64,000 nucleotides of DNA, from NCBI GenBank assembly GCA_964537055.1, contig CAZHYV010000004.1, positions 112,661-176,660 on the forward strand, given 5' to 3'. The stretch's first letter is position 1. Every line of letters begins with the position of its first letter. This DNA comes from an uncultured Myxococcales bacterium (GTDB lineage: Bacteria; Myxococcota_A; Polyangia; Palsa-1104; JAEUJZ01). Under the pieces are notes generated by a model. That model was not told where the DNA came from. It saw only the letters and a program-made list of their open reading frames with translations, and did not search any database. This document shows positions 8,050-44,339 of the stretch, one piece after another. Position numbers and translations under genes: made by a program.

Positions 8050-9366
8050 ATGTCTTTTTCTTCTCCAAATATGCCACAAACTTGGATCTGCGATCTACCC
8101 AAACACATTGGAGGTTTGGTCGAACTACGCGGCTGGCTTCACCAGCGTAGCTCGAAGGGAAAGTTACATTTTTTGAAAGTCCGAGATGGGTCAGGGTTCG
8201 TGCAAGCCGTGGTCTTTCAAGGAGATGTCTCTCAAGAGGTCTTTTATGAGGCAGACCATCTTCCTCAGGAGACCTCTATCATCATCCGGGGGATTGTCAA
8301 AGAGGACAAGCGCTCAGCGTCAGGCGTTGAATTGCAGGTACAAGACTTACAGGTGATTGCCAAACCCACCCTCGAATTTCCAATTAGTCCAAAGGAACAT
8401 GGTATTGCCTTCCTAATGGATCAGCGGCATCTATGGCTTCGTAGCAAGCGGCAAGTTGCCATTATGCGAATTCGTGCAGAGCTGGTCGCAGCCATCAGGC
8501 AGTACTTTGATGGGAAAGGATTTACCCTGGTGGATGCGCCGATCTTTACTCCTTCCGCGTGTGAGGGAACCACCAATTTATTCGAGGTGAAATATTTTGA
8601 TGAGAAAGCGTATCTTACGCAATCGGGACAGCTCTACATGGAAGCGGCTGCCATGGCGCTTGGGAGAGTTTACTGCTTTGGACCTACGTTTCGGGCGGAG
8701 AAGTCGAAGACTCGTAGACACTTAACCGAGTTTTGGATGGTCGAGCCTGAAGTCGCCTTCATGGATTTGGCGGGAGATATGGATTTAGCAGAGGATTTTC
8801 TGGTCGAAATTGTTGCCCGAGTTCTAAAAAACTGCCAGGCAGAACTTGAGGTCCTCGAACGGAATGTCTCTTCCTTAGAGCGAGTGAAAAAACCTTTTCC
8901 TCGCATTCGTTATGAAGAAGCCTTAGAGATTTTAGCAAAACACGGAAAGCATGTACCGTTCGGCGAGGATTTCGGCGGAGATGAAGAAACAGTGATTAGT
9001 GAGCAGTTTGATCGGCCTGTGATGATCCACAGGTACCCAAAACAGGTAAAAGCTTTCTATTTTAAACCGGACCCAGAGGATGAACGCTTGGCTCTTTGCG
9101 TGGACGTCATCGCCCCTGAAGGCGCAGGTGAAATCATTGGTGGGGGTCAGCGCGAGGATGACCTTGATAGGCTTCTATCCCAAATTGATTTACACAAGCT
9201 CCCTAAAGAAGCATTCGAGTGGTTTTTAGATTTACGTCGATATGGGTCAGTACCGCATGCAGGTTTTGGATTAGGTCTTGAGCGTACCGTCGGTTGGATT
9301 TGCGGCCTGCATCACGTTCGAGAAACCATCCCCTTCCCACGAATGCTCGAGCGTCTTAAGCCATAA
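8050..9366 (+). CDS. asnS: asparaginyl-tRNA synthetase (class IIb)
   Basis: 438 aa with an N-terminal OB fold. Class II motifs [21 protein letters not shown] and [10 protein letters not shown] are AsnRS-type, and [10 protein letters not shown] is motif 3. Confidence 0.8.
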
Positions 9367-11164: not shown

Positions 11165-11377
11165 ATGGCAAATACATGTGATTTTTGTGATAAAGGCCGG
11201 CTGGTCGGTAACAAAATCAGCCACTCCAACATCAAAACCAAAATGGCTCAACGGCCTAACCTTCAACGGGTACGCGTAACGATCGGCAAGGTGGCAGAAC
11301 GTGTACGAATTTGTACACGTTGTCTCCGTAGTGGAGCTGTTGTGAAACGCAGCCGTTCTTTCTCTGCAACTGCGTAG
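11165..11377 (+). CDS. rpmB: 50S ribosomal protein L28
   Basis: 70 aa, MANTCDFCDKGRLVGNKISHSNIKTK, which is the canonical L28 N-terminus. Confidence 0.85.
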   Translation: MANTCDFCDKGRLVGNKISHSNIKTKMAQRPNLQRVRVTIGKVAERVRICTRCLRSGAVVKRSRSFSATA

Positions 11378-22627: not shown

Positions 22628-24247
22628 ATGGTGCGACGAAGTATGGTAACATTAGGATTTTTGCTCTTTTGTTTCTTCTCATGCAAAGCTCCACCCTCTT
22701 TTTTAGAAAAAGACTACTTTGCCCTCCTTGAAAGGGAATGTTCTCTCCTCCCCAAGCAAGGGTCTTTCTATCTCGATCCTCCTCCGTCGTGCCAAGAAGC
22801 GTTTGATTGGGTGCTCCCTCTTGAAGCCAAGTATCATCAAGCTGAGTACGCAGAAGAAAAAGCTCGTCTCTATCGGGCCTTTTACTTTCTCCTTACTCGT
22901 CCTTTAGCACTACCTATGGAGAAAAATATCTACGGGATGGTGCCTGCAGGCGATTTGGTTGCTCCTTCGGTTCTCCAGATGAGGAAAGAGCATCCAGAAA
23001 TGAAGCTCAATCAAATCTTTTTTAACTACGTCTTAAACGCCACCAATGAGATCAAGATAAAAACCGATTATCCTAGCAGAAGCGGATATTTCAATCCAAT
23101 GACACAAAGCATTCATATAGCCCCTTTATCAGAACCCAATTCCACCATCGAGCAGGTTCTAGTTGATGCGTCCACATTAATCCACGAGGCTCGGCACTCG
23201 GAGACAGGGCCTCATGATACCTTTTGCAAAGGAGACACCCTGATCCCTGAGTGCGACAAAGGAACCGATCAACCCCATGGATTTCAGCTCACCTATCTAT
23301 GGAGTCTCCTTCAGGGCAATGAACTCCGTCCGCATCTTTCGATGACCGAAATGATTTATGTGGAAACTCAAATCTTCGAGGAGACCACTTCATTAACAAC
23401 CCTTCCCGGAGAAGTGCTCCTTTTTCGAGACATGGCTTGCGACCTCGAAGAAGCCTATAAGCCAGAAGGAGGGTTACGGAACTATTTCTCGTTCCGAGCA
23501 ATTTCTCAAGCAGAACAGCTTAGTACCTATGAACGGCAGTCCTTTTTTGTAGAGAGTGATGTCTACAAACAAGCCATGTCCGCTTGCAAAGGAACGCCTC
23601 AATCTTTCCAATGTGAGAAGATGATGGACCGCCTCATGGCCTCCTCCTTAGAATCAAGTGCTGAAGGCCTAAGAAGTTGCTCGACCTCAGGAGATATCGT
23701 AGAGAACTGCCAATCCAGGATCCGGAAAGGTTTTCTTTCCCTGCTATTAAATCCGCTTATTCTCCCTTTGGAAAAGTCGGTGCTTGGCCTAGGGCAAGCA
23801 CAAGATTTACTAGACCCTGATTTTCTGTCTTTGTTCCAGCATAATTCCTCGATGAATCCAAATCAGGTTTTATTCAATTATTTGCTTAAGGTACTTCCTA
23901 CTGTTCCGGATTGGTCTTTGGCTTATCCTTATTTTTCCGAACCTCTTGGGGAAGGTCCTTCACTGTATCTTCATGAAATCTCATCTTTCTTTGCCCGACT
24001 ACCCAGCATGTCTACCGTTTCTACCCTCTCAGTCCGCGAACTTCCTCGGTGGTACGGAAGCCTGCTCTGGGTTTTTCTGAAAAGTAATAGTGCCGCAACC
24101 AAACCCTTTTTAAAGCCTCAAGAAGTTTCTGGGCTTACCGAAGTGATGTGTGAGGCCTTTAGGCAATCTTCCCTCCCCATTCAGTTCTCAACATTAAAAC
24201 AGATGTCTTGCCAGGATTCTAAAATTCTGAAAAAATGGATGTCGTGA
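22628..24247 (+). CDS. hypothetical Cys-rich secreted protein or lipoprotein with an internal repeat
   Basis: Signal-peptide-like N-terminus (LLFCFFSC). Two related roughly 70-aa segments share L..PL.LP.EK...G...A.DL..P..L........NQ..FNY.L. Confidence 0.45.
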   Translation: MVRRSMVTLGFLLFCFFSCKAPPSFLEKDYFALLERECSLLPKQGSFYLDPPPSCQEAFDWVLPLEAKYHQAEYAEEKARLYRAFYFLLTRPLALPMEKNIYGMVPAGDLVAPSVLQMRKEHPEMKLNQIFFNYVLNATNEIKIKTDYPSRSGYFNPMTQSIHIAPLSEPNSTIEQVLVDASTLIHEARHSETGPHDTFCKGDTLIPECDKGTDQPHGFQLTYLWSLLQGNELRPHLSMTEMIYVETQIFEETTSLTTLPGEVLLFRDMACDLEEAYKPEGGLRNYFSFRAISQAEQLSTYERQSFFVESDVYKQAMSACKGTPQSFQCEKMMDRLMASSLESSAEGLRSCSTSGDIVENCQSRIRKGFLSLLLNPLILPLEKSVLGLGQAQDLLDPDFLSLFQHNSSMNPNQVLFNYLLKVLPTVPDWSLAYPYFSEPLGEGPSLYLHEISSFFARLPSMSTVSTLSVRELPRWYGSLLWVFLKSNSAATKPFLKPQEVSGLTEVMCEAFRQSSLPIQFSTLKQMSCQDSKILKKWMS

Positions 24248-25326
24248 GGCGTCTATTTCAAAAGATTCTTTCCATCGCCTATGCTGTCCCCATAGCAAAC
24301 ATGGGGCTCATTCTTTGCGTGTTAACGCCTTTTCAGGCAAGTGCAGCTTCTGATCCAACTCTGCGTACTGCTTCGCCTCCACAAGCTGCAAAAGACCCAC
24401 AGCTCCAACTGCTTGGCTCGACGGGCATTGGCACTTACAACATTGTCATCCCTAAGACAGAGACTTGGTATGCGCCTCTCCGTCTTGATCTTTTGCCACA
24501 ATGTCATCAGCCCGGCTTTTGTCAAAAGTATAAGCTTCGCTTCGCCATCACTCATCTAGATTTCTCGTTTGCGCAAGCGCCTCGGGTTCTGTCTCCCGGG
24601 AAAGCTGCCGAGAACGGACTTCCCTCTTTGTACGTAAATGTTGAAGCGTTTCAGATGCAGTTTACAAAAAGGATTTGGGTAAGCTTTGGTCAAATGCAGC
24701 TCTTCCGAGCCTTACGGCAACTAGATGAGGTAATGAATACCCAACTCACCGTTGCCAAACTGTCTGTACCCTTTGGAAGACTTGATAAATCTTGGGCGCA
24801 GGGAGGATGCTTTTTTGACATGAAGGGCCCGGGCTTCAAACAGGTGGCATACGGGTATCCAAACGAGGTTCCCTTCACTGGCCTCTTTGTGCTGGGCATC
24901 CAAACCAGCTGCCAAGTTGCCCTAGGTAGCCGAACTACCTCTGCGACCTTAGGCTATGCGTTTCGTAATGAAATCTCCGTGGGCAAAAGCGGAAACGGCA
25001 CGGCCGATAAGCCAGGACCCTTTGGCGCCCTTCTTACAGAGCACCGCTTTCAGATAAACGCCGGCGTGAAGCTTCGGCTGCCCGAAAAAGCACAAGCACT
25101 CGGGTTTCATCAGGTACGGCTCGAAGGAGTGCTTACACTCTTTTATCATATGAACCATGGCTGCCTTATCAGCCCCAGTCTCTCAAATCCACTGTGCAGC
25201 AACCAGGCTGATCAGTTCGAGCCTCGAGCCGGGATCCAACTCAGTCTAGATTTTGGTACACCAAAAACCCAATCTCAAAGCCACCCGATGGATCTACCCT
25301 ACACCTTCCCAAACTTTGGGTTATAG
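24235..25326 (+). CDS. hypothetical secreted protein
   Basis: 363 aa with a cleavable-signal-like N-terminus (IANMGLILCVLTPFQASAAS). Its last 16 codons plus stop are duplicated 2.5 kb downstream. Confidence 0.45.
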   Translation: MDVVRRLFQKILSIAYAVPIANMGLILCVLTPFQASAASDPTLRTASPPQAAKDPQLQLLGSTGIGTYNIVIPKTETWYAPLRLDLLPQCHQPGFCQKYKLRFAITHLDFSFAQAPRVLSPGKAAENGLPSLYVNVEAFQMQFTKRIWVSFGQMQLFRALRQLDEVMNTQLTVAKLSVPFGRLDKSWAQGGCFFDMKGPGFKQVAYGYPNEVPFTGLFVLGIQTSCQVALGSRTTSATLGYAFRNEISVGKSGNGTADKPGPFGALLTEHRFQINAGVKLRLPEKAQALGFHQVRLEGVLTLFYHMNHGCLISPSLSNPLCSNQADQFEPRAGIQLSLDFGTPKTQSQSHPMDLPYTFPNFGL

Positions 25327-25330
25327 CGGA
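25275..25330. repeat. direct repeat copy 1 (3' end of the upstream gene)
   Basis: Hand alignment gives 47/56 identity with 27795..27850. Both copies keep the frame QSHPMDLP(Y/H)(T/I)FP(N/S)FG(L/P) followed by a stop. Confidence 0.7.
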
Positions 25331-25502
25331 ACAGGGAGGCTACGTCTTCTCCGGTAGCCCATTCCTTTTTGCAACCATATCCTTACAAAGGTACCCTCCT
25401 CAAATGGAAGACTTTTATAAAACCGCTTGTGCTGCTCCTTTCTTGCTGATATGACCTAAAAAATTGAATTTCCTCAACAAACTGTAAAAGAGGAGGAGCA
25501 TC

Positions 25503-26585
25503 ATGAAATCAAAAGCACTACTTGTAGGGTTGTATGGCCTGATAAGTTTTTCTTGTGGACCTCTAGAAGAGCAAACCACAGAACCTTCCGAAGAAAGAGA
25601 GCGTCGCACAAATTCCTTGGCACAGGCGGACGATCCGAATGCAGAGTGCCAAGGGTCTTCCGGGGAAAACCCAATGCCAGATGGTCCCTGTATCGAAGCG
25701 GCCGATCATGAAAAAGACGAGATTTTGTCCGAACGAAAATTCCGAGAACTGCGCGAGGTAGCTCGCATAGCCTTCGGAAACTTCCCACGGCGAGATTCAG
25801 CTGGCTTTGTACACTTTGTCTCAGCAACCTCGGAAAATGATGAAATCATTGATGTTCGGCTTACCACCCCTTTTCCAATCATAAAACAAAAATGCTGGAA
25901 TTGGTGCGGCCCTGCAGCAACCCAAATGGTGCTCCATTATTTTCGGCGGCATGCTTCCCAAGATGACATCAAGGAAGCTGAAAGAGCCGGAGAATGTGAT
26001 GTGAAAGACTCAGGAGGCACTGCCATTGAGCCTATCTTAAAATACCTGAACGCACACATTGCTGAGATGGAGGATACCATCATCGATCCCATGAGTTGGA
26101 ATGACCCTTCCGGTCAATTCACTTATACTCTAGCATCTTCACATCCAGTGACGATTCTCCCCAAAACCGTCGTTCCCTACTCAGGCCATCATATAGGGCC
26201 TGATCCGGAGGACGAGAAAAATAATGCAAAAACGCTCATTACCATGGTCATTACTGATGTTGTGAAGCACAACCAGCCGGTGATTGTTTTGATCAATGAA
26301 ACTCCTCCCCAAAAGGAATATATATTTCCTGGCTTCTTTTATAAAACAAAGAATCTAAAAAAAGAGGCAAGGCGTGCTCATTATGTCCTTTTGATTGGAT
26401 ATAAAGGAAACTACGACGGGAGTGATGATTCTGCTCAATTTATCTTCCGTGAAAGCAGCACGCGGAATGGCATTGGAGATCGAATCATTCGGGAAGAAGT
26501 CAGTGTCAATGCCATCATCGCTGAGTTAGAATCCAATAATGGACATGGGGGCATGTCAAAGGAGAACTGGAATGTCCTTTATTAA
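25503..26585 (+). CDS. secreted C39-like papain-fold cysteine peptidase (Peptidase_C39_2-like)
   Basis: Signal or lipoprotein-like N-terminus (LISFSCG). Catalytic-Cys motif KCWNWCGPAATQMVL, later NQPVIVLIN, and a His motif AHYVLLIGYKGNYDGSDD, matching the C39-like family architecture as recalled. Confidence 0.6.
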   Translation: MKSKALLVGLYGLISFSCGPLEEQTTEPSEERERRTNSLAQADDPNAECQGSSGENPMPDGPCIEAADHEKDEILSERKFRELREVARIAFGNFPRRDSAGFVHFVSATSENDEIIDVRLTTPFPIIKQKCWNWCGPAATQMVLHYFRRHASQDDIKEAERAGECDVKDSGGTAIEPILKYLNAHIAEMEDTIIDPMSWNDPSGQFTYTLASSHPVTILPKTVVPYSGHHIGPDPEDEKNNAKTLITMVITDVVKHNQPVIVLINETPPQKEYIFPGFFYKTKNLKKEARRAHYVLLIGYKGNYDGSDDSAQFIFRESSTRNGIGDRIIREEVSVNAIIAELESNNGHGGMSKENWNVLY

Positions 26586-27789
26586 AAAAGAATCTTACAA
26601 GATGAGGGCTTTAGACTCTCATATGATCCAATGCCTAAGCATTGGATTCTTCCTTCTTCTTTCTACAAATGCATCTCCTACCAGTACCCCAAGCGACCCC
26701 TACTTTCGGGGTTTTGTCAAAACTCCTGTAGTGGCCACTGAGCTTACCGATCGGCCTTATCGAACCTGGATGATCCCTTCGCTTCCTCATCCTGATAGAC
26801 TTACCTATGCCTCAAACCACGGGCTACTGGTCTATCAATGTCAAAGTAATCCAACTGATGAAGAAAGCGATCTCACCTTTTGCTTTATAGATTTTAGAGA
26901 ACCTGTTCTGACCGAGCGCATGCTACCCCTTCCAAAACAAAAGACCACGCGTCTTTTTTTGGGCGGTCCACGGGCGGTCAGCGGGGATTGGGTGCTCGGG
27001 ATTTCTGGATGGAAGAGCGATACATATCGGGCCTTCCACCTTAAAACCGGGAAGCAGCTCATTGTGGGCAAAATCAGAAAGACGCCGGTGGATCATCCCG
27101 TAGGGCCGTTTGCGACCATTGCCGATCATCGGGTCGTTTGGGTCGATGAGTATAGAGACAAGACCGGCCGTAGAAATGCCATTAAGCTATTTGATCTGAA
27201 CACACACAGAGCGAAAACCCTATTTGAAGTACCTCCCGTTCACGAGGTAGATCAGGTAGCTTTAGAGAAAAATTTATTAGTGTATAGCTTGGTCGATTTG
27301 AAAGACCAAGAGAGTAAAGGCGAAGTTGCGAGTGATATTTACTTATATAACCTGACTACAAAAACCCATACTCGTTTGAGTCAAACGAAGCATGCCTCAC
27401 AGCCTGACATTGCCTGGCCATACGTAGTGTGGAAAACAGGGGTCTTTTTTGGAGTAAGTGGAATTTACCTTTACAATGGAGAAACAAAAACAGGGACCGA
27501 GCTCATCCAGGCAACCCGCGGAACCTCTCCTATTCGCAGTTATGAATTCCCGTTTATTTCTAAGGAGGGCGTGGCATGGCATGGTCTAGATTCTGATCGT
27601 AGAGTCGTTTTGTACCATCCTAAGACAAAAACGGAAGAGGTCCTGGCCAAAGCAGGATGGACCGTCTCGTTAGCGGGGCATTATCTTACCTGGGAAAGTG
27701 ACAACGAAAAAGATCCCAGCTGTACGGCCCCGAAGAAAAAGGACTGTTTGTACTTTACAGACCTTTCCGTACCTAATCGAAAACAATAA
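26572..27789 (+). CDS. secreted beta-propeller-like repeat protein
   Basis: RBS aaggag 12 nt upstream of the ATG, with a 14-nt overlap with the preceding gene. Signal peptide, then recurring blade-like segments (VVWVDEY, LLVYSLVD, YVVWKTG, GVAWHGLD, HYLTWESD). Confidence 0.5.
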   Translation: MSFIKKESYKMRALDSHMIQCLSIGFFLLLSTNASPTSTPSDPYFRGFVKTPVVATELTDRPYRTWMIPSLPHPDRLTYASNHGLLVYQCQSNPTDEESDLTFCFIDFREPVLTERMLPLPKQKTTRLFLGGPRAVSGDWVLGISGWKSDTYRAFHLKTGKQLIVGKIRKTPVDHPVGPFATIADHRVVWVDEYRDKTGRRNAIKLFDLNTHRAKTLFEVPPVHEVDQVALEKNLLVYSLVDLKDQESKGEVASDIYLYNLTTKTHTRLSQTKHASQPDIAWPYVVWKTGVFFGVSGIYLYNGETKTGTELIQATRGTSPIRSYEFPFISKEGVAWHGLDSDRRVVLYHPKTKTEEVLAKAGWTVSLAGHYLTWESDNEKDPSCTAPKKKDCLYFTDLSVPNRKQ

Positions 27790-27794
27790 GAGTT

Positions 27795-27850
27795 CCAAAG
27801 CCACCCCATGGATCTGCCCCACATCTTCCCAAGTTTTGGGCCGTAGCGGA
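27795..27850. repeat. direct repeat copy 2 (a displaced copy of the 3' end of gene 24235..25326)
   Basis: See copy 1. It lies immediately after the stop of the beta-propeller gene and ahead of rpmH. Confidence 0.7.
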
Positions 27851-27922
27851 CTCATGAGAAGAAGAGATCTTGACAACCGTCTAAAGATCCTGGTAGAACT
27901 GCTTCTTCAAAAGGAGTAGCCT

Positions 27923-28072
27923 GTGAAACGTACGTACCAACCTAGCAACCAACGTCGAAAACGAACCCATGGATTCCGAGTACGGATGAAAACCCGGGGT
28001 GGCAGACTGACCCTTTCCCGTCGTCGCCGTAAAGGTCGTGCTCGAATTGCAGTTACCATTGCAACCAAGTAA
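27923..28072 (+). CDS. rpmH: 50S ribosomal protein L34
   Basis: GTG start with RBS aaggag at 27911-27916. [45 protein letters not shown] is the canonical L34. It falls below the ORF-track size cutoff. Confidence 0.9.
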
Positions 28073-36337: not shown

Positions 36338-37054
36338 CTACATGCCTTTAGAGAGCAGGTGAAGATACAAAAATCCTATCACCATCCCAACCCCAAGTAG
36401 GATCATCTGTATAGTAAGCCTTTTCCGATTGAGGGTTGCTCCTGAATAGCTTTTCTGCATAAGATCCGGAGAGACGATCCCTCCAAGCCCAAACAGAAGA
36501 AGGATGGGGCCTGCTACAGTCGATTGGTCATAAAAATATCCCTCGGTCGTTGCAGTATGCCATGACCAAGCAATCAGGCCAAGGCCAAGAACCATAAGGC
36601 CTATTGCCACCCACGTATTTTTATGGGAGGGCGAAAATCCCCCTTCCTTTATGACAAGAGGCTTTTGTTCGATCTGAGCAAGGGTTAATGCTTCAGAAAG
36701 AATTTGAACCAGGGGTTTTCCCTGAGCATTGACAAAATAATGGTAAACATCGGGAGCATTGGAATTTAGCGAAAACCGTTGCCCTTGAAATGTAGAAAGA
36801 TTCGCCAAATCTGCAATGACCTTGTCGACAGGCATTTGACGTAGCTCTTTCTCGATTTGGACCAGCTCTTCCTTTGCTTTTGCTAAGTGGAGAGGCGAAA
36901 GCTCGGACTCTCGCCAGTCTCCCAAAAGCACCGGGAACTTCGCACCTCGGCCTTGGGGCTCGAGGCGATAGCTTATGGTCGCAAAGAAGGCCTCACTGAC
37001 TGCCTGTTCTGCCCAGGGTATGGAGGTTTTCCCTACGGAAAGTTGAGTTTTCAT
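36338..37054 (-). CDS. hypothetical membrane protein
   Basis: 238 aa with C-terminal TM helices; unassigned. Confidence 0.4.
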   Translation of the reverse strand: MKTQLSVGKTSIPWAEQAVSEAFFATISYRLEPQGRGAKFPVLLGDWRESELSPLHLAKAKEELVQIEKELRQMPVDKVIADLANLSTFQGQRFSLNSNAPDVYHYFVNAQGKPLVQILSEALTLAQIEQKPLVIKEGGFSPSHKNTWVAIGLMVLGLGLIAWSWHTATTEGYFYDQSTVAGPILLLFGLGGIVSPDLMQKSYSGATLNRKRLTIQMILLGVGMVIGFLYLHLLSKGM

Positions 37055-37856: not shown

Positions 37857-38924
37857 CTATGCTTCTGACGCTAGCATCTGTAAGAACCAATCTTCATCGC
37901 TAATATTTTCAACGTCGACAAATTTTTTTGCAAGACTCTTCTGAATCTGCTCTATCGCAGAAACGAACGTTTTTTCCATGTAGTGTTTTTCGAGCAGAGG
38001 ATGGATGTAATATCTCCGACAGACGCTTGGCGTATTGCCAAGCTGTTTTGCGACTTGCTTCACAATCTCGCTATACCCTTTCTTTGAGGGGATTTTCCTG
38101 GAGGAAACCGCTGGCTCCTCACTCTGAAAACACGCTTTTAGCTTTTGAAAGGCGCATAAAGTTCCTGAAAAGGTACGAAAATCTTTTGCTGTAAACTCAT
38201 TGCCCGTGACTTCGTAAAGGTACTGGTTGACATCCGAGGAGCCAATGCTACAAAGCTCGTGGTTCTCATCCATGTATTGAAACAGGTCCTGCCCGGGCAG
38301 CTCTTGGCATTGCTTCACAATACGAGCAAGCTGTCTATCCGCAAGATCAATTTTGTGAAAGATGCCACTTTTCCCTCGAAAACGAAAGTGAATGGTGCTT
38401 TTGTCAATTTGGACATGATGGTTCTTGAGCGTAGTTAACCCAAAGGATCGGTTGGTTTTTGCATATGCTTCGTTCCCAATTCGAATTGATGTCGTCTCTA
38501 ATAGCCGAACCACCGTTGCAAGCACTTTTTCCTTCGGTAAACCTTTCAGTGTAAGGTGTTCCTCCACCTGCTTGCGTACTAAAGGTAAACTCTTTACGAA
38601 CATGAGCATTTTTTCGAATTTGGTTTCGTTCCTGATCGAAGAAAACGCTGGATGATAGAGATACTGTTTCCGATCTCTTGCATCGCGTCCCGTTGCCTGT
38701 AAATGTCCCTTTGGGTGAGGGCTAATCCACACCTTCGTCCATGCAGGAGGAATGCGCAATGCCTTGATCCGAAGAAGATGCTCCTTATCAATTAGAGCTT
38801 GGCCCTGTTGATCAAAATAACGGAACCCTCGTCCATACCGCCTTCGAGTAAACCCCGTGCTTTGATCAGAAACATATCGAAGCCCTGCTTCTTTTGCACT
38901 TTGCTTGGGTGCTGGCGCATTCAT
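37857..38924 (-). CDS. type IB DNA topoisomerase (poxvirus/bacterial TopIB family)
   Basis: N-terminus GFTRRRYGRGFRYFDQQGQ, core TSIRIGNEAYAK...GLTTLK, and a C-terminal catalytic-Tyr region NTPSVCRRYYIHP; 355 aa. Confidence 0.8.
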   Translation of the reverse strand: MNAPAPKQSAKEAGLRYVSDQSTGFTRRRYGRGFRYFDQQGQALIDKEHLLRIKALRIPPAWTKVWISPHPKGHLQATGRDARDRKQYLYHPAFSSIRNETKFEKMLMFVKSLPLVRKQVEEHLTLKGLPKEKVLATVVRLLETTSIRIGNEAYAKTNRSFGLTTLKNHHVQIDKSTIHFRFRGKSGIFHKIDLADRQLARIVKQCQELPGQDLFQYMDENHELCSIGSSDVNQYLYEVTGNEFTAKDFRTFSGTLCAFQKLKACFQSEEPAVSSRKIPSKKGYSEIVKQVAKQLGNTPSVCRRYYIHPLLEKHYMEKTFVSAIEQIQKSLAKKFVDVENISDEDWFLQMLASEA

Positions 38925-40814: not shown

Positions 40815-40831
40815 TGGTCTCTCTAAAATTT

Positions 40832-40904
<73 letters not shown>

Positions 40905-40926
40905 TAGAAGATGTGGGAAATCAATG

Positions 40927-42220
40927 TCATTTCTCCTGCGTCTCAAAAAAATTACAAATCAGTTCTGTTTGCGTATTTTCGTATAAAAACCCATTGAAAA
41001 AGGCCCGATAATACTCGTTTTGGTATTTTGCCCTTTCGAGTGGATCTTTTCCTATAAGTTTCCAATCTCTGGAAAAAAGCCGAATAAAATCCTGTCCTGT
41101 TTGCGCGTTGATTCCATCAAAGATAGTTTTCTTTCCATCTTTGATCTTATCCACAAGAACGACTCGCTGATGAGTATGGTTAGCATCAATATAAGAAGAG
41201 AGTATCGCTTGGTTGATATAAGTATCAGCAAACCCGTACCCAATGATGAGCAGCCTACTGTTGTTACGCAAACATCTTCTGAAATATTCGTAATATGTGG
41301 CGAACGGTTCCTGTGCAATTACTCGATTCGATTTCTCTAACCCTGTAATTATTGGAAAATTATATTCGGATCTTCCTGCTTGGGATTGTTGTGCATATCG
41401 AGGAAATCTAAGATCCTTTTGGGAAAAAACTGCGATTTTCATTGAATGGCCAAATGTTTATACTACCATGCAAATGTGCAAGCCTTGGTCTTTCATCTGC
41501 TTCCATAAATAATGAAGGACTAAATATAAACCTATCTTCTATAGGGCGAAAACCACAGTCAATGTAGGATATTACTTCCTCGATACAGGGGTCATAATTT
41601 AATGTGACTATATTAAGTTGAAACTTCGATGCGAGTGTCTCCAGGAACGAACGATATCGAGAGTGTGCTTGAGAAATGTCTATGGGTAATTGCTGGACAC
41701 TATTAAGGACTTTCCTAGAATTTTGATAAATAGAATCTAAAACTTGATGAATGATTTTTGAAATAAGTCTACGAATAAACCATTCTATGTTTTGGGACGG
41801 CGATTCAGGCTCTCCGGAGGATAATTCACTCAAGAAGTCCGCTATTTCCTTATGAAATTCTTTTGTCAAAAAGCCTTCTACAGCGACTATGCCATGATAA
41901 CGAAGTCCGCTGTTTTTAGAGGGATAACTTCTATGGAGTGTTGAAAGAGTTTCTAGAGTATGGATCAGATGTTCAAAATTGATGAGTTCAACTTGCTTAT
42001 TTTTTTCACCAGGAGTAACTTTATATTCATTAGGGAAATCGTCTCGATAGCAGTTCGTCGTAAGCTGTTTAAGTATTTCTAAGAACTCTAGCTCCCGACT
42101 ATCAAACAATTTGTAACTATTACAAAAGATTTCCTTGGTTATGGCAACAGTACCAGGGATTTTCAACAATGTAGAGGCGCCAGCTCCAACAAGGATAGTA
42201 AGTCGTTCTTTTTTACTCAT
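40927..42220 (-). pseudogene. SIR2-like (SIR2_2 family) protein split by a frameshift in an A6 run (plus-strand 41424..41429)
   Basis: The N-terminal ORF (41408..42220) has LTILVGAGAS and a catalytic-His motif HLHGS. The C-terminal ORF (40927..41442) has LLIIGYGFAD. Deleting one T from the minus-strand T6 run joins the two frames directly (..NENRSFSQKDLRFPRYAQQ..), giving a roughly 425-aa protein. Confidence 0.6.
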
Positions 42221-43386
42221 TTGCTTAAATAAACTCTTTCTTCTAATCTATTCCGAGTGCGGTTAAGCTCTTCGACGAGTAACTTTTCGTCTGGAAGTTT
42301 TGTTTTGTATTCACTCGCCAGGACTTTGTTAGTAATCCCTTCTAATGCATAATGAACCACGGCATCTTCTTTCTGGGAACACAGAATTAATCCCACAGGT
42401 GGATTTTCTCCTTCTAGCCTCCAGTGCTCTCGTGCATAGTTTACATAAAGATGCATTTGACCCACGTCTGCATGGGTGAGACGTCCAATTTTCAAATCAA
42501 TGATGACCAGGCAGCGTAATCGTCGGTGAAAGAAGAGCAGATCGATTCGATACCATTCTGACCCTACGCGTAATCGTCTTTGGCGGCCAACAAAGGTAAA
42601 ATCGTTTCCCAGTTCAAGCAAAAAAGCTTCCAAATTTGCAATCAATGCTTCTTCTAACTTGCTCTCTGAATACTCGTCTTTTAGACCTAAAAATTCTAGG
42701 ACAAATGGGTTCTTAATCTCTTCTTCCGGGGTCAAAGCATATTCGGGTTTTGCTGGTGTTTCCTTCTTGAGAAGATTTGCTTTATTCTTAGACAGAAGGG
42801 CCCGCTCATAAAATTGACTATCGATTTGACGCTCTAACTGTCTTACGCTCCACCCACCTCGAAGGGCTTCTGCTTCATAGAAAGCACGGGCTTCTTCTGA
42901 GCGTGTCCGACGAATCAATAAAACGTAATGCGACCACGATAAAGGAAATGGGACCTTCCTATTTTTTCCTTCGACCTTTAATTCCCCAGACACTGTCTGG
43001 GGAATTTGTCGTTGTGCATAAATCGAATAGAATCGTCGAGCGTCTTCCAATCGAGTAATCGAAAACCCTCGACCAAATCTTTCAGTGAGATGATGAGAAA
43101 GATAATGCAGTAATTCCTGACCATACTGCGCCCGTTCTTTTCCCTGTTGTTCTTGCTCGATGATCCGTTTTCCTAAAGACCAATACATCGTTGTCATAAT
43201 GAGATTGACTGAGCGCACAGCGTTCCTTTTCGCTTGCTCGATAAGCCCTACTAAGTCATCTAACATCGTCTTGTAGTCGGATTGCGATACAAGTTTTGCC
43301 TTTGGTAAGAGATTGTCTCTATTCGATCGCTTTTTGTTCTTTGGTAGTGGCATCTTAGACAGGTACAGTAGCGTTTTTTCATCCAA
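42217..43386 (-). CDS. YhcG/DUF1016-family PD-(D/E)XK nuclease
   Basis: 389 aa with PLSWSHYVLLI in the N-domain and a C-terminal PD-(D/E)XK core (RIDLLFFH...VIIDLK...GQMHLYVNY). Its stop overlaps the SIR2-like start (ATGA). Confidence 0.7.
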   Translation of the reverse strand: MDEKTLLYLSKMPLPKNKKRSNRDNLLPKAKLVSQSDYKTMLDDLVGLIEQAKRNAVRSVNLIMTTMYWSLGKRIIEQEQQGKERAQYGQELLHYLSHHLTERFGRGFSITRLEDARRFYSIYAQRQIPQTVSGELKVEGKNRKVPFPLSWSHYVLLIRRTRSEEARAFYEAEALRGGWSVRQLERQIDSQFYERALLSKNKANLLKKETPAKPEYALTPEEEIKNPFVLEFLGLKDEYSESKLEEALIANLEAFLLELGNDFTFVGRQRRLRVGSEWYRIDLLFFHRRLRCLVIIDLKIGRLTHADVGQMHLYVNYAREHWRLEGENPPVGLILCSQKEDAVVHYALEGITNKVLASEYKTKLPDEKLLVEELNRTRNRLEERVYLSK

Positions 43387-43555
43387 GAGGAAAGTGCCGA
43401 GACAAGAATTTATTCAAACAAATGTAGGAGAATGCCAAACCTTACTGCTCCATTTTAACATCAAAGGAGCCAAAAATAGTTTCTTTATTCACGTAAGTAG
43501 TTAAAAGTGCAGAACTTTGTGGAACTGGACAACGATACCATAAAGCTTCTCATCA

Positions 43556-43610
43556 GTAGAGTGTCTGAATGGCATTCAGACGGTCAGGGGTTCGATTCCC
43601 CTCAGCTCCA
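43556..43610 (+). repeat. direct repeat of the 3' 55 nt of tRNA-Ala (att-like islet boundary)
   Basis: gtagagtgtctgaatggcattcagaCggtcaggggttcgattcccctcaGctcca differs from tRNA positions 19-73 at two positions. Confidence 0.8.
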
Positions 43611-43721
43611 TCATTTTGTCTTACCTGTGATAGTTTATACGGTTGCGTTTTTTCTTATGGTACGAATTTCATCTAGCCGTGCATAGTACTCTGCCTGGTA
43701 CTTGCGAAAAGCGTACGACGG

Positions 43722-44339
43722 CTACAGAAGAGGTTGCGTAAGAATTTTTTCTTGAAGGAACATCAAAACAATGAGCAATCTACCAATCCGCCCGTTGCCA
43801 TCTAAAAAGGGGTGTATGATCTCAAACTGGGCGTGAGCCAAACCTGCCTTTATTAATGGAGGTATGTCTTTGTCTTCGTTAATAAACTTCTCTAAATCAC
43901 TCATGAGTGATGAAATTCTTGTTGCTAGGGGAGGAGTGAGATTTTTAACACTCACCTGTTGTTTACGATAAGATCCAGGATCTGCATGGCCCCCTAACTC
44001 TCCCTGCATAAGTTCTCGGTGAGCTGCCAAGATTACTCGCGAACTCACAGGCAGGCTCTTTTCCCCTCTAAGAGATGCCCAGGCGGTATATAAACACCTT
44101 AGGTAATTTGAAACCAGTCGAGTATCGGGATGGCTCTTTTCTAAAGAGCGTTCCTCTTTAAACACATTTTTGATGGTTGTATGAATCCCCTCAATCGCTG
44201 AAGAAAGAACCCCCTCCTTGATCACGTAAGATTTAATAAATTCTCCTAGATGCGGAACTCTAGAGGCTACTTCATTAAGCTGGCCCAACAAGTGCATCGC
44301 CTGGCCATAAAGTGCTATCGTTTCTGTATCGTAGGCCAA
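43722..44339 (-). pseudogene. Fic/Doc-family protein, C-terminally truncated
   Basis: N-terminal inhibitory motif SAIEG and active-site motif HPFLDGNGRIGR. The ORF stops 18 aa after the Fic motif, whereas Fic domains normally continue for more than 80 aa. Confidence 0.6.

Follow-up and report, generated by a model that had tools for sequence, protein, structure and literature searches.

A peptidase-propeller gene pair between an outer-membrane barrel gene and rpmH in an uncultured Myxococcales bacterium, flanked by two diverged copies of the barrel gene's 3' end: probable scar of an insertion

In the genome of an uncultured Myxococcales bacterium, the end of a gene coding for a predicted outer-membrane protein (gene X) recurs just before rpmH, on the far side of a cassette of two genes. 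The locus raises the question whether this cassette was inserted at the 3' end of X in the manner of the integrative elements that target the ends of protein genes, as the original prediction had it, and by which route X kept its tail. Coordinates refer to the window, i.e. the whole stretch of 64,000 nucleotides of DNA that was analysed. The features of the locus are the following:

22628 to 24247, plus strand: predicted lipoprotein of 539 aa with a HEARH (HExxH) motif, from the ORF list
24235 to 25326, plus strand: gene X; predicted product with a signal peptide, an outer-membrane beta-barrel of 12 strands and, at the C-terminus, a disordered extension of ~18 residues
25276 to 25330, plus strand: repeat copy 1, the 16 final codons of X (QSHPMDLPYTFPNFGL) with the TAG stop and the CGGA that follows it
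25338 to 25372, plus strand: terminator-like hairpin (GGCTAC, 10-nt loop, GTAGCC, then a T-rich run)
25503 to 26585, plus strand: C39-like (papain-fold) cysteine peptidase with a signal/lipoprotein-like N-terminus
26572 to 27789, plus strand: secreted beta-propeller protein, the first 14 nt of its gene overlapping the end of the peptidase gene
27796 to 27850, plus strand: repeat copy 2, a non-coding relic of the X tail that reads QSHPMDLPHIFPSFGP followed by a stop in the same frame
27923 to 28072, plus strand: rpmH (ribosomal protein L34; Pfam Ribosomal_L34, 4e-19)

The window was compared with itself, which settled the limits of the repeat. The segments 25276-25330 and 27796-27850 are direct copies of 55 nt with 46/55 identical positions (84%) and no gaps, and they are the only two copies in the window. 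The similarity ends sharply at 25275|25276 and at 25330|25331. The repeat described earlier was thus real, but its count of 47/56 over 56 bp was off by one, as position 25275 is a T and its counterpart 27795 a C, and the string then quoted in fact begins at 25276. The longest perfect block common to both copies is just 11 nt, so that no clear recombination core stands out. No further copy was found in the 64-kb window or in the few short loci fetched from the genome. Both junctions are covered by Logan contigs, three in number and assembled from two sequencing runs, that match the window at 100% identity, L001 and L002 crossing copy 1 and L003 crossing copy 2 into rpmH; as both junctions are present in independent assemblies, an assembly artefact is excluded. 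Chance similarity or an artefact, in favour of which there is no point, is refuted by these junctions together with an expectation of ~6e-9 for 46/55 matches (binomial, all position pairs of the window) and the lack of any match in 100 shuffles (0 expected).

The two copies start 2520 nt apart, i.e. 840 codons, and are therefore in the same frame. Copy 1 is the functional tail of X and has retained the ...GL end typical of the family, whereas in copy 2 the terminal Leu codon (TTA) is replaced by a Pro codon (CCG), giving a Gly-Pro instead of a Gly-Leu end. Copy 2 begins 6 nt past the propeller stop and ends 20 nt short of a TTGACA hexamer upstream of rpmH. The conserved frame and stop of the second copy had been taken to imply a duplicated gene end. 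The duplicated gene end stands, but the open frame is no sign of selection, since 73% of random variants of the 16 codons with 9 substitutions remain open. The 9 differences between the copies comprise 4.5 synonymous and 4.5 non-synonymous changes (pN/pS 0.25); this synonymous excess, based on 9 differences (P about 0.02-0.09), is in part also expected with constraint on copy 1 alone. If the copies were identical at birth, their divergence amounts to ~0.18 substitutions per site. The relic lies in the frame of the propeller gene, two codons past the TAA, but read-through of this stop was rejected as meaningful, because a shared frame has a 1/3 chance and no paralogue has such a tail.

Gene X has the predicted traits of an outer-membrane beta-barrel, namely a signal peptide and a closed barrel whose antiparallel strands are even in number. 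Its start is overlapped by the stop of the 539-aa lipoprotein gene, with which it forms a conserved pair; homologues of the lipoprotein gene lie directly upstream of X homologues in two other loci (L067 and L068). The lipoprotein itself has a weak Pfam match to DUF6782, a putative metallopeptidase (E 0.055, below the cut-off). No close relative of X, only X itself, was found in 5.8 billion protein clusters. The tails of the 13 detectable X homologues have nothing in common with the X tail or the repeat except the terminal Gly/Ala-Leu, and across the family the tails are hypervariable. For such tails a nucleotide identity of 84% points to recent common descent and not to an old paralogue tail, the alternative that had originally been allowed for and that is hence unlikely. 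It supports the descent of copy 2 from the tail of X or of a very close X orthologue. In the contexts of X homologues that were inspected, neither rpmH nor the peptidase-propeller pair was ever next downstream, and other genes were found there.

The earlier labels of the cassette genes and of the genes behind them were borne out. The peptidase matches the Pfam family PF13529 Peptidase_C39_2 with 43 bits (curated cut-off 24; E 8.8e-11), the match covering the N-terminal region with the catalytic Cys of the predicted enzyme. The AlphaFold2 model of the propeller protein has a pLDDT of 77 and all-beta blades, and Foldseek matched it to Kelch and oligogalacturonate-lyase propellers. These two genes take up the cassette, with 172 nt before and 6 nt after them. 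The terminator-like hairpin sits at the left inner edge of the insert, its stem being present in the minimum-free-energy fold of 25276-25400; it was not flagged in the consensus scan because its loop is longer than 8 nt, and it may act as a terminator. Downstream, rpmH is by Pfam the first gene of an rpmH-rnpA-yidD-yidC-mnmE-rsmG block, whose products are L34, the RNase P protein, YidD, YidC, MnmE and RsmG. Neither a cluster of DnaA boxes nor a skew turn indicative of a replication origin was found near rpmH.

Signs of mobility were then searched for in the segment. On either side the segment is bordered by a direct repeat that takes in the target gene's 3' end, i.e. the last 16 codons and the stop of X. 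Among the 52 ORFs of the window that were scanned against Pfam, those of the cassette included, none hit a recombinase or transposase family. No terminal inverted repeats join the insert ends, and no att-like or attC-like fold was detected, as the repeat copies fold no better than shuffled sequences (z +0.7 and +0.9). An integron cassette would have an attC-like fold and an integrase gene, neither of which was found, and a transposon or IS would have inverted repeats and a transposase, which are likewise missing, and here the duplication is 55 nt long. The composition of the cassette, proposed as a further check, did not set it apart from the backbone: its GC content is 0.459 compared to 0.463, and its tetranucleotide correlation is 0.84, most other 2.5-kb pieces having values of 0.78-0.90. 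The foreign signature of an integrative element is thus not seen. Of the original prediction, an insertion at the 3' end of X is upheld by the descent of the repeat, the layout and the presence of the gene pair elsewhere, but its attribution to an integrative element finds no support in recombinase, inverted repeats, fold or composition. Nothing remains that could move the cassette, which is now immobile. The two genes leave no room in it for a recombinase gene.

Sequence collections were searched for relatives and for the site before insertion. No tblastn match was obtained in plasmids for the propeller protein or in phages for the peptidase, and the propeller alignment had no relative in IMG/VR. 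The X protein and the repeat pattern were both missing from the JGI metagenomes, an exact look-up of L34 gave no match, and in a collection of 185,579 species genomes (the source genome not included) the YidC nearest to that of the window was 42% identical. No second occupied site was found in the collections searched, and the empty site was not found because close relatives do not exist in them. The empty-site configuration would be 25275 joined to 27796, a single repeat copy, then CTCATGAGAAG.

The peptidase-propeller pair is also present at three other loci (L062, L064 and L065), with an X homologue or rpmH beside none of them. The peptidase homologues are 37-40% identical in L062, 37% in L065 and 63% across the last 43 residues in L064, and the propeller paralogues are 41-60% identical; a propeller gene with 60% identity is present in SRR6837584. 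The pair of L065 lies between an AAA_14/DUF4143 gene and guaA, and that of L064, the closest relative of the module, is followed by an unrelated 263-aa gene, without an X-tail-like flank. No flanking repeats were found around the modules in L062 and L065. The non-coding DNA upstream and downstream of these two modules has nothing in common with that of the window except a 14-mer in L065, CTACATCTTCCCAA of the repeat core, which lies 15-29 nt past the propeller stop and matches each copy in 13/14 positions. This match was spotted post hoc (uncorrected p 0.002-0.005), is absent from L062 and L064, and is probably due to chance. In L062 the gene order is peptidase, propeller, a 3' fragment of the peptidase gene (74-86 residues) and propeller, the fragment being a relic with 49% amino-acid identity. 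L062 shares its tetranucleotide signature with the window (r = 0.95), and as the paralogous modules lie in contigs of the same signature they give no pointer to a foreign origin.

We consider it probable that a single insertion, 55 nt short of the end of X, has left its scar at this locus, where a replacement tail keeps X whole and the displaced tail remains. The layout of an intact gene, an insert and a displaced 3' relic is the product of a single insertion near the 3' end of a gene, and this reading needs one event with two breakpoints. The ancestral order would have been the 539-aa lipoprotein gene, X and rpmH. A piece of 2.46 kb with the hairpin, the peptidase gene and the propeller gene would have entered within the stretch coding for the disordered periplasmic extension, past the last barrel strand. 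Copy 1 would be a second version of the last 16 codons and the stop, brought to the left edge of the insert and leaving X whole, and copy 2 the original tail, stranded before rpmH and decaying. Most likely the replacement tail arrived with the incoming DNA, already diverged; this is favoured by the low pN/pS and because a relic identical at birth must have outlasted the divergence calculated above. The piece may have integrated at an att-like site by means of a recombinase encoded elsewhere or since lost, comparable to phage 21 and e14 at icd. Alternatively, one-sided homologous recombination with a related donor having X, peptidase and propeller genes may have been closed by an illegitimate join.

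Three known systems can be compared to this locus. After insertion of e14 in the icd gene of E. coli, the displaced 3' end persists as a 163-bp pseudo-icd' relic (PMC6379469). As with lambdoid phage 21 and e14, a protein gene has here taken up the insert within its 3' end, the copy on the side of the element completes the gene, the displaced 3' end is a pseudo-fragment at the far end, and the copies are similar but not identical. However, these elements are 15-40 kb long with their own integrase and excisionase, whereas the present segment has 2.46 kb and no recombinase, its repeat is 55 nt at 84% identity and its cargo looks native. Cis-mobilisable elements (CIMEs) are flanked by att sites, lack recombination genes and are found beside streptococcal ICEs. 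The present segment is likewise short, without an integrase of its own and flanked by att-type direct repeats that include the target gene 3' end, recombination genes being absent. By definition a CIME has its att sites in common with a resident element and is a substrate for the integrase of that element, but no resident element with a cognate integrase was seen in the 64 kb and the few short loci. Homology-facilitated illegitimate recombination, a process of natural transformation, does without a recombinase of an element, since homology in a shared gene anchors one end and the other is joined illegitimately; it has been demonstrated experimentally in few transformable bacteria only. It can leave the donor and recipient versions of a short stretch side by side, and may by analogy have acted in this uncultured lineage.

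A duplication of the target during the insertion itself is unlikely. Repair of breaks staggered by 55 nt, or a template switch, would then have made two identical copies, and the 16% divergence would have arisen later, with copy 1 constrained by the protein and copy 2 free. The exact borders on both sides and the gap-free copies of equal length agree with this, as do the native composition, which suits an old or intragenomic event, the position in copy 2 of the change breaking the family's terminal Leu, and the peptidase gene relic of L062, which has lasted far longer. However, a pN/pS near 0.55-0.6 is predicted, well above the observed value (although the data are weak), and a functionless 55-mer would have had to avoid deletion for a long time. 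Target duplications made by transposases are of ~2-15 bp, and to our knowledge no bacterial insertion mechanism makes duplications of 55 nt.

It is distinctly improbable that copy 2 is the remnant of a second X, i.e. that X or the unit of the 539-aa gene and X was duplicated between the propeller gene and rpmH and later deleted except for its last 55 nt. The lineage does make and keep such relics, as the peptidase gene fragment between the propeller paralogues of L062 is what a tandem duplication of the peptidase 3' end plus propeller is expected to leave. L062 has in common with the window that an upstream gene's 3' end recurs behind the gene that follows; gene family and lineage are the same too. 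However, the propeller gene of L062 is doubled too, so that a single tandem duplication explains that locus, whereas the window duplicates nothing beyond the 55-nt tail. Simple tandem duplication cannot yield the observed order, and is ruled out because a second peptidase-propeller pair is absent. A second X would require at least two events, with three or four breakpoints falling 6 nt past the propeller stop and 4 nt past the X stop, and no other close copy of X was found in protein databases.

A second insert was found in the same window:

40831 to 43611: tRNA-Ala(GGC) islet, a 2.65-kb insert with a 56-nt direct repeat of the target 3' end

It resembles the X-tail cassette in insert size, in the repeat of the target 3' end and in the absence of an integrase, but differs in its tRNA target, its closer repeats (54/56 identical), its lower GC content (about 0.42) and its cargo of defence genes (a split SIR2 gene and a PDC-S02/YhcG nuclease), and the event is clearly younger and foreign. 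The presence of such an islet in the window speaks for the reading of the X locus as an insertion. Compared by eye, the X repeat and the tRNA-Ala repeat show no significant similarity, just a common 10-mer with one mismatch. It is very unlikely that both inserts are products of one type of integrase moving small recombinase-less cassettes in trans at att sites of ~55 nt, with the peptidase-propeller pair as a cargo spread to several loci.

Still less credible is that the 55-mer was kept twice for a function in DNA or RNA, for instance in regulation, as a small structured RNA or as the recombination site of a cassette system (integron attC or Xer). The recurrence of the repeat-core 14-mer past the propeller stop of L065 would fit, but that match is short, post hoc and missing in L062 and L064. 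Furthermore, the folding z values are unremarkable, no Rfam match was obtained at E up to 1, no more copies exist in the window or the fetched loci, and no integrase gene was found.

A single insertion near the 3' end of X is thus the reading that we retain, and as textbooks would expect just this architecture from an insertion at a gene 3' end, no new question is opened otherwise. The analysis also defined three protein families restricted to the lineage, i.e. the barrel with its periplasmic tail, its lipoprotein partner and the peptidase-propeller pair. In a lineage with almost no sequenced relatives, the locus would be a clean, dated-looking case of a gene pair set right before one of the most conserved operons of bacteria, with the neighbouring outer-membrane gene left unharmed.

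Gene X (24235-25326), which codes for a predicted 12-stranded outer-membrane beta-barrel, is separated from rpmH by a 2.46-kb insert bordered by a gap-free direct repeat of 55 nt, with 46 of 55 positions identical between copy 1 (25276-25330) and copy 2 (27796-27850) and a start-to-start spacing of 2520 nt. The repeat described in the original prediction is thus present, but its count of 47/56 is wrong, since position 25275 mismatches 27795. When the limits were checked, similarity was found to stop abruptly at both borders. A degenerate 37-nt pattern from the repeat core matched the window at these two sites alone, 100 shuffles gave no match, and about 6e-9 matches of 46/55 are expected across all pairs of window positions. 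Three contigs, assembled independently from the data of two runs, show no difference from the window and between them span both junctions, so the arrangement is not an assembly artefact. Chance or artefact is excluded as the origin of the repeat, and the finding is real.

Features bordering and within the insert (window coordinates)
Directly upstream of gene X and overlapping its start: lipoprotein gene, 539 aa, HEARH motif
25338-25372: terminator-like hairpin, directly 3' of copy 1
25503-26585: ORF, C39-like peptidase (Peptidase_C39_2 match)
26572-27789: ORF, predicted beta-propeller (structure model)
27870-27875: TTGACA hexamer, 3' of copy 2 and upstream of rpmH

The domain match and the propeller model uphold the earlier labels of the two insert genes, which overlap by 14 nt and code for proteins with signal-peptide-like N-termini. 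Downstream is the rpmH cluster, in the order L34, RNase P protein, YidD, YidC, MnmE and RsmG. gyrB is located at 751-2745, about 25 kb upstream of rpmH; neither a DnaA-box cluster nor a GC-skew turn was found within the window, and the replication origin is therefore probably outside it.

Copy 1 consists of the final 16 codons of X, its TAG stop and four more bases, whereas copy 2 starts 6 nt 3' of the propeller stop and reads QSHPMDLPHIFPSFGP followed by a stop, in the same frame. This conservation of frame and stop had been taken as evidence for a duplicated gene end; it is uninformative, since the frame also stays open in 73% of random nine-substitution variants. The propeller TAA stop and the relic are in one frame, two codons apart (27787-27846), and read-through would add EFQSHPMDLPHIFPSFGP. 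Meaningful read-through was rejected: the shared frame has a chance of 1 in 3 and none of the paralogues has such a tail, so it is probably a coincidence.

The repeat is confined to the C-terminal extension of X. Shorter members of the X family end with Phe, as is usual for outer-membrane proteins; X and its six nearest homologues carry an additional extension of 20-35 residues, hypervariable in sequence, which ends with Gly/Ala/Asn-Leu, as in X, in five of the six homologues and with Leu-Phe in the other. Homologues of the 539-aa lipoprotein precede the X homologues at two further loci, L067 and L068. These genes form a lineage-restricted conserved pair (window 22628-25326, L067 4560-7507, and L068), in which a lipoprotein of roughly 540-615 aa with HExxH, whose stop overlaps the start of the barrel gene, is followed by a 12-stranded outer-membrane barrel with a hypervariable periplasmic C-terminal extension; the Gly/Ala/Asn-Leu terminus is found in 6/7 aligned barrel members, and the barrel family has only 14 members among 1.84 billion representative proteins. 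A paralogue of X from the same sample (L066 1365-2714, 38% identical) is followed on its 3' side by an apparent transposase gene, degenerate and frameshifted, which resembles IS630 on visual inspection. The searches gave no close relative of the organism: the best YidC match in 185,579 species genomes was 42% identical (Polyangia and Oligoflexia MAGs), and X and the repeat were both absent from the JGI metagenomes. The relic in copy 2 has 84% DNA identity to the X tail, in a family whose tails otherwise cannot be aligned, so that both copies stem from a recent common ancestor rather than from old paralogues.

The peptidase-propeller pair is a unit recurring at other loci (L062, L065 and, in a different sample, L064), none of which contains an X homologue, rpmH, X-tail-like sequence or flanking repeats. 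At L062 (4284-8407) the order is peptidase, propeller, peptidase 3' fragment and second propeller; the fragment, a 3' end of 74-86 residues, shares 49% identity with the first peptidase's tail and is still open as a 72-codon ORF. A tandem duplication of the peptidase 3' end plus propeller produced the L062 arrangement, in which the peptidase relic has long persisted. At L065 the pair is flanked by an AAA_14/DUF4143 gene and guaA, and at L064 a propeller 60% identical is followed by an unrelated gene. L065 also contains CTACATCTTCCCAA (11204-11217), 15-29 nt past the propeller stop, a weak and post hoc match (13/14) to the core of both copies, and an inverted copy of this 14-mer with two mismatches (8513-8526) in the spacer that precedes the peptidase gene.

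Comparison of the cassette with the backbone showed no contrast: its GC (0.459) and tetranucleotide signature (r = 0.84) are indistinguishable from those of most other 2.5-kb window pieces, and L062 and the window correlate at r = 0.95. No recombinase or transposase family matched any of the 52 window ORFs scanned (Pfam), and the insert has neither a recombinase nor space for one. No inverted repeat joins the insert ends, the repeat copies have no fold and no Rfam match, and the plasmid, phage and IMG/VR collections contain no relatives of the proteins. The insert shows neither the recombinase nor the foreign composition of an integrative element.

The simplest history is a single insertion into the order lipoprotein gene-X-rpmH, which would be the ancestral one. 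The original prediction is supported in part: an insertion is the likelier reading, and an integrative element is not supported, as the insert is without recombinase and native in composition. The break would be 55 nt short of the X end and eight codons beyond the final barrel strand, within the part that codes for the disordered periplasmic extension. Copy 1 would preserve a complete X with the family-typical Gly-Leu end, and copy 2 would be the displaced tail, with Pro as its final codon now. The copies may have been identical at birth, or the replacement tail may already have diverged. Half of the nine differences are synonymous, and the pN/pS of 0.25 on 16 codons (marginal, P about 0.02-0.09) would count, marginally, for a tail diverged before arrival; identical birth would imply that a useless 55-mer persisted through roughly 0.18 substitutions per site. 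A pre-diverged tail might have arrived by site-specific integration through an att site mimicking the gene end, as for e14 and phage 21 at icd, or by illegitimate recombination anchored by homology, with a relative as the DNA donor.

A 55-nt duplication made at insertion and since diverged would agree with the exact borders as well as with the native composition, but a known mechanism for 55 nt is lacking and a pN/pS higher than 0.25 is predicted. That copy 2 is what a deletion left of a second X gene is plausible in principle, with the L062 relic as precedent; however, several events would be needed, with breakpoints coinciding with gene ends by chance, and the observed order is unobtainable by a single tandem duplication. 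A functional repeated element has as its sole argument the 14-mer common to the L065 propeller flank, which is short and post hoc.

The proposed insertion at the end of X has a textbook counterpart in the same window, the tRNA-Ala islet (2.65 kb, 56-nt repeat, no integrase).

Features of the tRNA-Ala islet and its outer border (window coordinates)
40831-40905: tRNA-Ala(GGC), last 56 nt repeated at 43556-43611 (54/56)
41408-42220 and 40927-41442: SIR2-like defence gene, split into two ORFs
42217-43386: YhcG/DUF1016 PDDEXK nuclease (PADLOC PDC-S02, 1e-134)
43722-44339, minus strand: truncated SoFic-type Fic gene (profile positions 21-223 of 361)

The locus 40831-43611, with a low-GC segment between the repeats and no integrase, appears to be a defence islet in decay, located at a tRNA gene. 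The truncated Fic gene adjoins the outer side of the islet's right repeat, which suggests that debris of an older island extends further out. Between the rpmH block and the islet are genes for an Imm70 immunity-protein homologue (36338-37054) and for a type IB topoisomerase of bacterial type (37857-38924).

Like e14 or phage 21 at icd, where a 163-bp pseudo-icd' is left behind (PMC6379469), the X-tail insert has the layout of an insertion at the 3' end of a protein gene with a replacement tail, and, as a cassette without integrase, it resembles att-flanked cis-mobilisable remnants. Its architecture is thus already known from insertions at protein-gene 3' ends, and the peptidase-propeller module family itself, judged by its composition, is native to the lineage, not foreign.
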